This document shows, in pieces, positions 47,100 to 61,485 of a DNA stretch of 64,000 nt (within the stretch, counting starts at the first letter, position 1; the number at the start of each line of letters is the position of its first letter). The stretch comes from Escherichia phage vB_EcoM_Lh1B. The position numbers and the translations under genes were made by a program. The notes under the pieces were generated by a model. That model had not been told where the DNA came from and made no database searches. It saw only the letters and a program-made list of their open reading frames with translations. The DNA is taken from the sequence record OK428535.1, one strand, 5' to 3'.

Positions 47100-48302
47100 T
47101 TACTTAGTACCCGCTTCAGCTTGAACATCGTCGCGCGAGGTGAGGCTGTTGTTGACGTGAACAGCAGCCTGCACAACACCTCCATACTGTTTATGGAGGT
47201 AATTCGGGTGTGGGTTATCCGCAGCCGCATGGTTCGCCAGATTCTGGTTTGCCTGCGAAATTGCGTTGGTGTTGTTTATAACCTGAGTTTTAAGACTGTT
47301 GATTTGTCCTTGCAGGTTATCAATTTGCTGTTGGAAGTCTTTGCCCTGATTCTCAAGATCCGTGACGCGCTGATTTGTTTCATTCAGTGCAGACTGAAGA
47401 TCGTTAACCATCTTCTGTAATTGCAACACCAGAGAATTAAGGTTAGCTAATGCTAACGACATTTTCTGGTAATTTTGAGCAACCACGTTAAGCTGGTCGT
47501 TCCACGCGGCTAACGAAGCCACAATTGCATCGATGCGTTGCCCCAACGCCGTGTCTGCTNCTCTTAAGTCGCCGATATCGTTGATAGTGGCGTCAATGGC
47601 AGTCTGTACACTTTGAATCAGGGCACGAATCTCCGTCTCCGTCAGGCCATTAACCTGATGAATGTCGAGATTGTGTACGTTACCTTCGGCGTTGATGTGT
47701 GTATTTAAGGCGTCGAGGAAGTCGTTTCTCAGACCGTCCAGAATACCTTTAATTTCTTCCAGCTGTACTGCAGAGCCGGAGTTAATCGCATCTTTAATCC
47801 CCGCGAGTACGGTAATGATATACTCAAAACCGTAGATATCGCCAAGGTCTTTATACGTCGGGGCGGACGGGAACGTATCGGGTACGTTTCGAAGATCCTT
47901 GAAGTCCACCACACGGTCTTCAATTTTCAGCGACGCAATCGCTTGTCGGATGCCTTCGACGTTCGCGGACTGAAAACCACCAACGACTTGCGCAGAGACT
48001 TCGATATCAGTAGGAATGGCCGAGTTAGTTACCACCACACCCATGACCACTTCGCGGTTCTTGGTCATTTTCTGATATGCAGTATGTGCAAAAATCAGTT
48101 CGTAGTCTGTGCCGCGTTTGTACGGGTAGACACCTGGTTTATTCGCAGCTGCCAAGCGGAAGGTATCCGCGTAGAAAGCTCCGTCAGGAAAAGCAAAAGC
48201 CCGGTTAACTTTACCAGAACCTAACGTAATACGCCGTGTAACGGCGTTCGACGTTAATGTCCCGGTAAGGTCGAGCGGGTACTGATGAATGATTTCGGCC
48301 AT
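47100..48302 (-). CDS. Tail fibre-like protein with gp17-like N-terminal motif and central coiled coil
   Basis: ATG at 48302 (MAEIIHQ) follows AAGGAG; track start 48338 lacks an RBS. N-terminus RAFAFPDGAFYADTFRL...KRGTDYELIF fits the T7 gp17 anchor pattern; heptad-like LANLNSLVLQLQKMVNDLQSALNETNQRVTDLENQ. Confidence 0.7.
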   Translation of the reverse strand: MAEIIHQYPLDLTGTLTSNAVTRRITLGSGKVNRAFAFPDGAFYADTFRLAAANKPGVYPYKRGTDYELIFAHTAYQKMTKNREVVMGVVVTNSAIPTDIEVSAQVVGGFQSANVEGIRQAIASLKIEDRVVDFKDLRNVPDTFPSAPTYKDLGDIYGFEYIITVLAGIKDAINSGSAVQLEEIKGILDGLRNDFLDALNTHINAEGNVHNLDIHQVNGLTETEIRALIQSVQTAIDATINDIGDLRXADTALGQRIDAIVASLAAWNDQLNVVAQNYQKMSLALANLNSLVLQLQKMVNDLQSALNETNQRVTDLENQGKDFQQQIDNLQGQINSLKTQVINNTNAISQANQNLANHAAADNPHPNYLHKQYGGVVQAAVHVNNSLTSRDDVQAEAGTK

Positions 48303-48349
48303 TGCCAAACTCCTTTGATTGGGGCTTCCTTGCCCCATAGCGCTATCTG

Positions 48350-60700: not shown

Positions 60701-61485
60701 AGACGCAGGATACTTGCCCCACCGTTTGCGTAACAGAGCATCCAATCGATCAACTCGCCTGGATTCAACGTTGTTTCCGGTGGAATGCTCGGTAAACGGT
60801 ATTTTACCGCTAACGAATACGCACCGAACGTCGTGTTCTGGTAAGATAACGAATAACGACGACGCGACGCGTTATACGTGTAGCCGCCAGTACCGTCGTA
60901 CGTCGCATACTGCTCGGATGTGATAAGCGTGACACCGGCGCGATATTGAAGGTCTAACGTGTTACGAGCAATCGGGTCAACGCGACTGATCGCTTCACCG
61001 AGCTTAGCACCAACCGCAACAATGGCTTCCATCAACTCGGATTCGCCACGCCAGTTTTCCCAGTCGAACTTAATATCGACCGGTGGGAAATATAAGTCCC
61101 CAATGACGTTATCCCATTGGCAGTCTACGGGATAGCGATCTTTATTCGCTTCTCGTTCTGCGGCGATCATTTCTGCAGTGGCTTCACCGATGCCAATTGC
61201 GTGGTAATCGAGTGTAAAGCCACTCTGATATTTCGGGTTGGTAATCCACACGCCGCCGTGACAAACATGGCCAGTGCGTGCCATGCCCGTAACGTACGCA
61301 TGGGTGATGACGTAATCATCACCTAATGTTAATTTCTTGCCGCCACTCTTGACCACCAGGGATGTGGTATAAAAGGGGGCGTGTGCGGGGAACAGCATCC
61401 GGTACTTAGTACCGATCGGCGTTACCGCTTCACCGGTCTGCATATTCCCCGGTTCTTGATAGTGCGGGTCAGGGACGACAGCCAT
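57772..61485 (-). CDS. Large tail fibre/spike-like protein (1237 aa) with gp17-like N-terminal motif
   Basis: N-terminus MLFPAHAPFYTTSLVVKSGGKKLTLGDDYVITHAY; AAGGAG Shine-Dalgarno; first gene of the minus-strand operon. Confidence 0.8.
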   Translation of the reverse strand: MAVVPDPHYQEPGNMQTGEAVTPIGTKYRMLFPAHAPFYTTSLVVKSGGKKLTLGDDYVITHAYVTGMARTGHVCHGGVWITNPKYQSGFTLDYHAIGIGEATAEMIAAEREANKDRYPVDCQWDNVIGDLYFPPVDIKFDWENWRGESELMEAIVAVGAKLGEAISRVDPIARNTLDLQYRAGVTLITSEQYATYDGTGGYTYNASRRRYSLSYQNTTFGAYSLAVKYRLPSIPPETTLNPGELIDWMLCYANGGASILRLQLKQRAIYLTLTTAIGSGSSNYSYTLTTGLTDAELAGEVEFSVVRREGNGIYDITVKTSKQTVNYSFNVDNPPSEFAPGYQKTDVAKWLKFKSGVNLNWWAGENDYVQIRSLPGAPSPDVNNDVYQLLVKYHQIVDKLYRDAPAHTHVPRKDNPHRDSWGAIRALENNGIASDATLVYGKTQPQLTDYVNNLLPKLSALANKLLRLPTAAQSINGTFGMKPGLTSITSAVGTDESEGVGAQFTVDPRVXRFIGRDSQTVNAGNNPITWQGGANQLILYPDSRGLEFNGKKLLDPTTVGPYLPGNESGGDGLFYGTSTATVTINGNGIQSVPFICTFVPPESDDLGLMAVRLLATEFGDREDLAATPALIKKLDQQFTGKLVAVKSYINDMPLTXSIYIDKTNFGLSNVQNIPDVQLPISPLQRAELDKYAVVGHTHTPDALGIKRATTTEFGLVQFGTAVDDATLALDGAEVIRQADAITEIEKVAKTVDSGASINIIRYGLPGTDIIENGITYTDWMVTIKANDYFVGREYKVPLSTFNLAELFPATHEDAEFGVYVDAAGXDGKYIIYENPNTAETETMTKIGSIVTSETGVVFVEIRNVTRLGEFRELGEHIEDDNAHIRRGMTQADFGFTYGTGGPVWSTGAPGTKRIDADWRYAQASSYTPMLKADYDPAADKWTFKTTSLSVTXYRFVHNTFPMFQNNGITATWTPLTATADSVLETVIGCCHHSATFMHRISVLVARTAGRITTPGGVSTYAGIAVNYGRAAQVVIGLNGVTGSGHDWTALNPSVRFSHARTADGISFVGTINIDSKTINFELTLTATTKTLKYTLQSTGESWTEDLSTRLRPDYIDLTKLITDPSTPIYHGVGGLFSSDTEARLTYANLNTMPTKNRYYATFLDYAINYSGLNRARFFTGVVDAGSTINEMNSAMCNYSYSSFRPVDTGKIPPAAHPSKMMTFNPKNTSGRTLIIRD

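Follow-up and report, generated by a model that had tools for sequence, protein, structure and literature searches.

The DNA analyzed here, referred to as the window, is a stretch of 64,000 nucleotides from Escherichia phage vB_EcoM_Lh1B (OK428535.1), in which positions 47100 to 61485 carry four fibre-type open reading frames (ORFs) on the minus strand. In a nucleotide comparison, this region matched 41 phage records. The best match was E. coli phage vB_EcoM_EC001, with 97.0% nucleotide identity across all 14,386 bases, and Salmonella phage SPN3US was 94.7% identical over the same 14,386 bases; both records are classified as Seoulvirus SPN3US. On this similarity, the window is assigned to a Seoulvirus, SPN3US-type jumbo myophage, and the four ORFs are assigned as the orthologues of SPN3US gp167, gp168, gp169, and gp170, by which names they are referred to below. 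The SPN3US record names SPN3US_0167 "putative virion structural protein 20" and SPN3US_0168, 0169, and 0170 "hypothetical protein." The four minus-strand ORFs of about 400, 1237, 1376, and 1742 amino acids (aa) reported in a first-pass annotation are present as described. The window contained 225 scattered short runs of N, some inside the four fibre genes and giving X residues in the translations; these lower the apparent identity to database records and did not hinder the analyses.

The first gene, gp167 (47100..48338), encodes 412 aa from the first ATG, or 400 aa from the start used in related records (M13 at 48302). As the short family member, it consists of the common anchor domain, an Hx6H pair at aa 214/221, a coiled coil of ~125 aa (aa ~250-375), and a short NPHPNY tail, with no globular distal domain. 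It matched phrog_2163 at 9e-109 and gave coiled-coil Pfam matches at aa 234-373. The adjacent gp168 (48350..53578) is 1742 aa long from a TTG and 1727 aa from the start in related records (M16 at 53533). Its anchor and shared stem occupy aa 16-~596 (window 51791-53533) and are followed by a beta-rich region with a beta-propeller at about aa 600-1010 (window ~50552-51778), a shared Hx6H module at aa ~1314-1466 (window 49181-49639), and a C-terminal tip at aa ~1415-1742, for which the model was of low confidence. Relative to SPN3US, nonsynonymous change was raised at gp168 aa 700-800 (21 per 100 codons).

In gp169 (53629..57759, 1376 aa), the beta-sandwich anchor at aa 1-~105 (window ~57445-57759) is followed by a W..P..(F/Y)P motif at aa 124-141 and a long helix at aa 146-193. 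The shared stem extends to aa ~569 and includes an Hx6H pair at aa 199/206 and an HxH pair at aa 496/498; beyond it lie a lectin-like segment (aa ~609-744 in profile positions; window ~55528-55935), the late Hx6H module (aa 766-845), and a hypervariable patch (aa ~878-1130; window 54370-55128). The last of the four, gp170 (57772..61485, 1237 aa), has its anchor domain at aa 1-~165 and a shared stem that runs to aa ~783 and carries an Hx7H pair (aa 409/417) and an HxH pair (aa 696/698); the shared late module lies at aa 766-916 (window 58738-59190; Hx6H at aa 876/883), and the C terminus beyond it is variable. The family hidden Markov model (HMM) matched gp170 in two pieces, aa 12-190 and 396-485. 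Between its anchor domain and the shared stem lies an insertion of ~205 aa (aa ~190-396; window 60298-60918), which is also present in orthologues, is lacking in most family members, and appears beta-rich by eye. On the plus strand, and transcribed divergently from this paralog array, is the gp171 orthologue (SPN3US_0171; 61553..62815, 420 aa).

An N-terminal pattern common to the four proteins, flagged in the first-pass annotation, proved to be real. The signature P-F-Y/F ... G-x-D-Y-x-L/I was found at about residues 35-80 in 4/4 proteins, and this goes far beyond chance. Pairwise BLASTP of the N-terminal part gave E values of 5e-24 for gp168-gp169, 1e-7 for gp167-gp169, and 1e-5 to 1e-8 for gp168-gp170, and PHROG cross-hits were consistent with the four proteins being paralogs. 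An AlphaFold2 monomer model of gp169 aa 1-235, based on a 29-sequence alignment, contained a beta-sandwich at residues 1-105 (predicted local distance difference test, pLDDT, about 89-97; strands within aa 16-99), then a short helix, a poorly predicted linker with the conserved W..P..(F/Y)P, and the long helix at 146-193 (pLDDT 80-92). All four proteins start in this way, the ~105-residue beta-sandwich being followed by W..P..(F/Y)P and then by the long helix. In the profile, the part covering linker and helix matched PDB entry 9d93, "tail collar fibers, gp4" (E 2.6e-9), and weakly matched R-type pyocin fibres through a W..P..FPP..H.H motif. A literature search for PDB entry 9D93 returned nothing relevant, and neither gp168 nor gp169 gave a phmmer match among PDB sequences.

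The module was found to be widespread. A profile of the four N termini matched 3,042 representatives of 50%-identity protein clusters at E<=1e-3, and in the best 150 of these, with lengths of 166-2164 aa, the match began within the first ~20 residues, except in one apparently truncated protein. A separate homologue search with the 4-sequence N-terminal alignment recovered mostly gp167-sized proteins, none >443 aa, and seemed to favour proteins of query length; a search for homologues of the T7 N terminus likewise gave only proteins up to 270 aa.

The family to which the proteins properly belong is, judging from profile matches, that of the phiKZ gp131-like baseplate fibre paralogs, of which gp167-170 are the local version of phiKZ gp131-135. 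The family HMM matched phiKZ gp131, 135, 134, and 133 at E 4e-65 to 3.5e-40, while in phiKZ gp132 the match was confined to the Hx6H helix motif. Conversely, an HMM built solely from the first 240 residues of phiKZ gp131, 133, 134, and 135 and run on the 345 six-frame window ORFs of at least 60 aa matched exactly gp167-gp170, with E values of 5e-24 (gp167), 5e-15, 1e-12, and 4e-8 and no other ORF at E<=10. The family HMM picked the same four ORFs, and with the two HMMs neither further N-domain paralogs elsewhere in the 64-kb window nor a gp132-like mini-protein was found in it. The closest phiKZ relative of gp167 was the short paralog gp135 (BLASTP 1e-13). Phage phiKZ gp145 and gp146 were considered as further paralogs and rejected, as neither was matched by the family HMM.

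The genomic setting agrees with this assignment. By BLASTP, gp171 is a full-length homologue of phiKZ gp130 (2e-13; aa 11-402 versus 7-413), and the gene layout matches that of phiKZ, with gp130(-)/gp131-135(+) there and gp171 (+) divergent from gp167-170 (-) here. The phiKZ proteins (Sycheva 2012; PMC13250141) are thus alike in the N-terminal domain, in the tandem array of four N-domain paralogs, and in the divergent gp130 homologue. In phiKZ, gp130 is an outer-baseplate protein, with the fibre attachment sites located beneath it, and there are 12 peripheral baseplate fibres (PMC13250141). The fibre root was described as a candidate hetero-hexamer under gp130, composed of gp131x3 + gp133 + gp134 + gp135, with six N-domains around a six-helix bundle (PMC13250141). 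By analogy, the four N-terminal modules probably dock on gp171, and the long helix predicted after the sandwich matches the helical bundle seen in phiKZ. A distal beta-propeller occurs in both systems, in gp131 there and in gp168 here, but the phiKZ distal domains have no sequence similarity to those described here. No gp131C chain appeared in the PDB profile search, and neither the PDB sequence-profile nor the fold searches returned a phiKZ fibre N-domain chain, the phiKZ baseplate chains 9xqs and 9xqd appearing only as weak generic matches.

Downstream of the anchor, the four proteins had been thought to differ completely, which does not hold for the three giants: these have about 570 residues in common (gp170, with its insertion, about 780) as well as a later module. 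In profile-profile alignments (hhalign) of the ortholog families, gp168 1-565 aligned with gp169 8-569 (E 1e-66) and gp168 1-581 with gp170 7-783 (E 1e-78). A late module of ~80-150 aa containing a His motif was also common to them, with gp168 1299-1451 corresponding to gp170 766-916 (probability 99.5%) and to gp169 766-845 (probability 74%). After the anchor, the giants have in common a stem of ~350 residues with conserved His pairs. Invariant His pairs occur at three points per giant, namely, an Hx6H after the helix (Hx7H in gp170), the HxH of the stem, and, in the late module, another Hx6H. Only the regions beyond the shared segments, and the coiled coil of gp167, are unrelated. These distal parts comprise the propeller in gp168, the lectin-like segment and hypervariable patch in gp169, the inserted domain in gp170, and the coiled coil alone in gp167.

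Evidence that these proteins are part of the virion was obtained from the published work on SPN3US, whose gp168-170, identical in gene order and lengths to the genes described here, are the "paralog family C" of Ali et al. 2017 (PMC5694885) and Thomas et al. 2016 (PMC5105663). In the passages of these papers on family C, gp168-170 are described as low-abundance virion proteins and as baseplate/tail-fibre candidates similar to phiKZ gp131; they were missing from tailless mutant particles and were assigned to the tail, and gp168 is given as an expected essential gene (PMC5694885, PMC5105663). The corresponding passage on gp171 describes an essential tail-associated protein (PMC5105663). In the published supplementary proteome, all of gp167-171 were detected by mass spectrometry, including gp167 (44.8 kDa) with 85 spectra and 70% coverage and without a family label. 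The spectral counts per kDa were 1.90 for gp167, 1.08 for gp168, 1.41 for gp169, and 1.00 for gp170, suggesting only similar orders of abundance. Absence from virions, which would have spoken against a fibre role, was thus not seen, the orthologues in the 94.7%-identical phage being virion proteins. The listing of family C in those passages omits gp167, which here clearly carries the same N-terminal module. Nor do the family C descriptions in them include the ~570-aa sharing and the late module, the His motifs, the gp168 propeller, or the lectin-like and hypervariable regions of gp169.

Taken together, gp167-170 are best interpreted as baseplate fibre paralogs of the phiKZ gp131-135 type whose N-terminal modules would co-assemble in a multi-chain root under gp171 and whose distal, putatively carbohydrate-binding domains differ; the probability of this reading is put at roughly 0.8. 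By analogy with the phiKZ cryo-electron microscopy (cryo-EM) atlas of 2026, the sandwich-plus-helix modules of different paralogs would not sit in separate sockets but would be combined in one root of several chains. The mixed root would dock under gp171 at the outer baseplate, as proposed from the position of phiKZ gp130, and each peripheral fibre would then be a hetero-oligomer showing several different carbohydrate-binding distal domains for host adsorption. Co-assembly is, we infer, the likeliest mechanism because the six N-domains of phiKZ form a candidate hetero-hexameric fibre root under gp130. All of phiKZ gp131-135 were without transposon insertions (PMC12676376), which fits obligate partners better than redundant alternatives. 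A fibre-type nature is supported by the match to PDB 9d93 and by the Phage_fiber_2 and PTR repeats, which were the only phage-related Pfam matches in 53 family members, the one other match being to a flagellin domain. The multivalent fibre apparatus proposed on first pass therefore stands in that one common N-terminal attachment module is carried by fibre-like virion proteins with different distal parts, but not in its anchor being of the T7 gp17 type.

Several points weigh against this reading. The phiKZ hetero-hexamer is itself termed a candidate by its authors, the fibre models being AlphaFold (AF3) predictions docked in 4.4-4.6 A maps (PMC13250141), and co-assembly in the present phage is proposed by analogy with it. 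The composition also differs, as the N-domain paralogs of phiKZ (457-771 aa) comprise one long and three short proteins, whereas three giants of 1237-1742 aa and one short protein of 400 aa are found here. Motifs of the HxH and Hx6H kind usually belong to homotrimeric fibres, and separate homotrimers might therefore be formed instead. The SPN3US spectral counts per kDa do not fix the ratio of the paralogs, and the evidence for receptor binding by the distal domains is at the level of folds, the lectin match being marginal (best domain i-E, the independent E value, 0.006).

A more specific arrangement can be considered, though only tentatively and as a minority reading, in which each fibre would be a single branched hetero-oligomer, built from the gp167 coiled coil as core and a single copy of each giant (gp168, gp169, and gp170), joined via the N-terminal module under gp171. 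In addition, the Cys-rich proteins with CXXX repeats and the pair of radical-SAM maturases encoded downstream (see below) may supply a cross-linked accessory component. This arrangement mirrors the 3+1+1+1 candidate of phiKZ but would place three different receptor-binding arms of ~140-190 kDa on each fibre. Branched systems of another kind are CBA120, with TSP1-4, and phiKp24, with hyperbranched fibres, in which beta-helix depolymerase tailspikes are attached via T4 gp10-like domains. In contrast to those depolymerases, no beta-helix or depolymerase signature was detected by Pfam in the proteins studied here.

The first-pass annotation had assigned the N termini to the tail-attachment domain of T7 gp17. 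Were they true homologues of gp17, four independent types of fibre would be expected, each protein making a homotrimeric fibre or spike by itself and all of them using equivalent sockets. A short motif, V-x-V...G....L....D-Y-x-F, does align the family with T7 gp17, and HxH-type motifs are compatible with trimeric fibres. In hhalign against the T7 gp17 N-terminal alignment, however, the whole family profile gave a probability of 8.6% (P 0.004) over 24 columns, corresponding to the hairpin that had been flagged, and the core domain alone gave 21.9% (P 0.001) over 49-75 columns, both against a shallow T7 alignment of 23 sequences, all at least 55% identical. HMM-to-sequence scores between the family and T7 gp17 were at noise level in both directions. 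The T7-type N termini retrieved as controls all carried PF03906, whereas this Pfam family was not matched in the four proteins at E<=1 or in 29 diverse family members at E<=10. The N-domain model, searched against the PDB with Foldseek, gave nothing below E 0.08, the long helix having probably hampered the search; solved structures of the gp17 N-terminal domain are 7BOZ and 8E4G.

The biological setting differs as well, T7 gp17 being placed at the adaptor-nozzle of a podovirus and the present proteins at the outer baseplate of a myovirus. Unlike T7 gp17, the phiKZ-type domain is followed by a bundle-forming helix and enters mixed oligomers in phiKZ (PMC13250141), the closest solved relative, which shows mixed six-chain roots rather than separate trimers. 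Homology to T7 gp17 is not supported by these data, and four independent fibre types of this origin are considered unlikely. What remains is a weak fold-level resemblance to podophage fibre anchors, possibly reflecting very distant ancestry, which hints at, without establishing, a common origin of the fibre-attachment sandwiches of podophages and giant myophages.

Improbable to a similar degree is that the giants are enzymatic tailspikes, that is, depolymerases, sialidase-like proteins, or glycosidases of other kinds, acting on surface polysaccharide by degradation and not by binding alone. The beta-propeller fold of gp168 is common to lectins and glycosidases. The enzymatic spike domains that had been suggested found no support in Pfam, though, as hydrolase, lyase, beta-helix, sialidase, and esterase families were matched neither in the four proteins (E<=1) nor in the 53 family members (E<=0.01); all that Pfam returned for the four was coiled-coil noise in gp167 and fibre repeats that scored below threshold. 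PDB sequence-profile searches likewise returned no enzyme. The gp169 family profile matched the fungal lectins 6T0Q/6T1D/6KBJ (E ~7e-6) at positions 609-744, and this segment is regarded as marginally lectin-like. In comparison with SPN3US, gp169 aa ~878-1130 was strongly diverged and contained small compensating in-frame indels, while its flanks were about 97% identical and the rest of the 14.4-kb region about 94-97% identical. Local divergence between conserved flanks is a pattern typical of a specificity-determining region, and the patch (window 54370-55128) looks like a mosaic host-range patch.

A role in the head or in packaging, suggested only by PHROG, which places phrog_2163, 7557, and 8078 under "head and packaging," is very improbable given the tail-fibre repeat motifs, the homology to phiKZ gp131, which is localized at the baseplate periphery, and the absence of gp168-170 from the tailless SPN3US particles, as described in the passages on family C, where they are assigned to the tail.

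The finding of a fibre paralog family at this locus is real but already known, its main content having been published for SPN3US and phiKZ, and the recognition of gp167 as the fourth member is a small addition. The family is nevertheless of interest as it is expected to decide host recognition of a model jumbo phage and of its Erwinia, E. coli, and Proteus-associated relatives. The domain map of gp167-170, with the common root, the shared stem, the gp168 propeller, and the gp169 lectin-like segment and hypervariable patch, can guide host-range swaps and mutations, and it indicates to cryo-EM groups which chains to expect under gp171.

Outside the fibre finding, the most interesting unexplored item nearby was a set of two CXXX-repeat Cys-rich ORFs and a pair of radical-SAM genes, all on the minus strand. 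The Cys-rich ORFs lie directly downstream of gp167 at 46227-46631 (134 aa) and 46642-47034 (130 aa) and are paralogs with 49% identity. Each consists of an N-terminal part of ~50 aa and then ~80 Cys/Ser/Gly-rich repeat residues, in which Cys occurs about every fourth residue, for a total of about 20 Cys. One of them gave a marginal, below-cutoff match (E 0.0099) to NCBIfam TIGR04114, "Cys-rich repeat-containing protein," and a few of their database homologues carry the unnamed Pfam family PF27846. The Cys-rich region was conserved in 53 Seoulvirus and Erwinia phage records.

The radical-SAM genes, corresponding to SPN3US gp163 and gp164 (42838-44166 and 44159-45073), lie three genes downstream from gp167. 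For gp163, TIGR04115, "radical SAM peptide maturase, CXXX-repeat target family," scored best in NCBIfam at 3e-36, which is below the family cutoff, and the PapB ranthipeptide maturase came next at 1e-32. From these matches, the Cys-rich ORFs and the radical-SAM pair look like a phage-encoded peptide-maturation cassette adjoining the fibre genes; a literature search for a CXXX-repeat/radical-SAM system in phages returned nothing relevant. In the SPN3US record, gp166 is annotated in a different frame (46223-46558 (-) in the window), yielding an odd Val/Ala-rich product of 111 aa, and no gene is annotated where the second Cys-rich ORF lies, whereas vB_EcoM_EC001 annotates both Cys-rich frames. 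With these frames absent or misframed in the SPN3US annotation, the published SPN3US virion proteomics, if searched against that annotation, would have been unable to detect their products.

Two further ORFs were observed elsewhere in the window. The first, a 722-aa ORF at 35963-38131 (+), has a Gly-rich middle section that is heavily N-masked, and the 205-aa ORF that follows it at 38219-38836 appeared lysozyme-like by eye.

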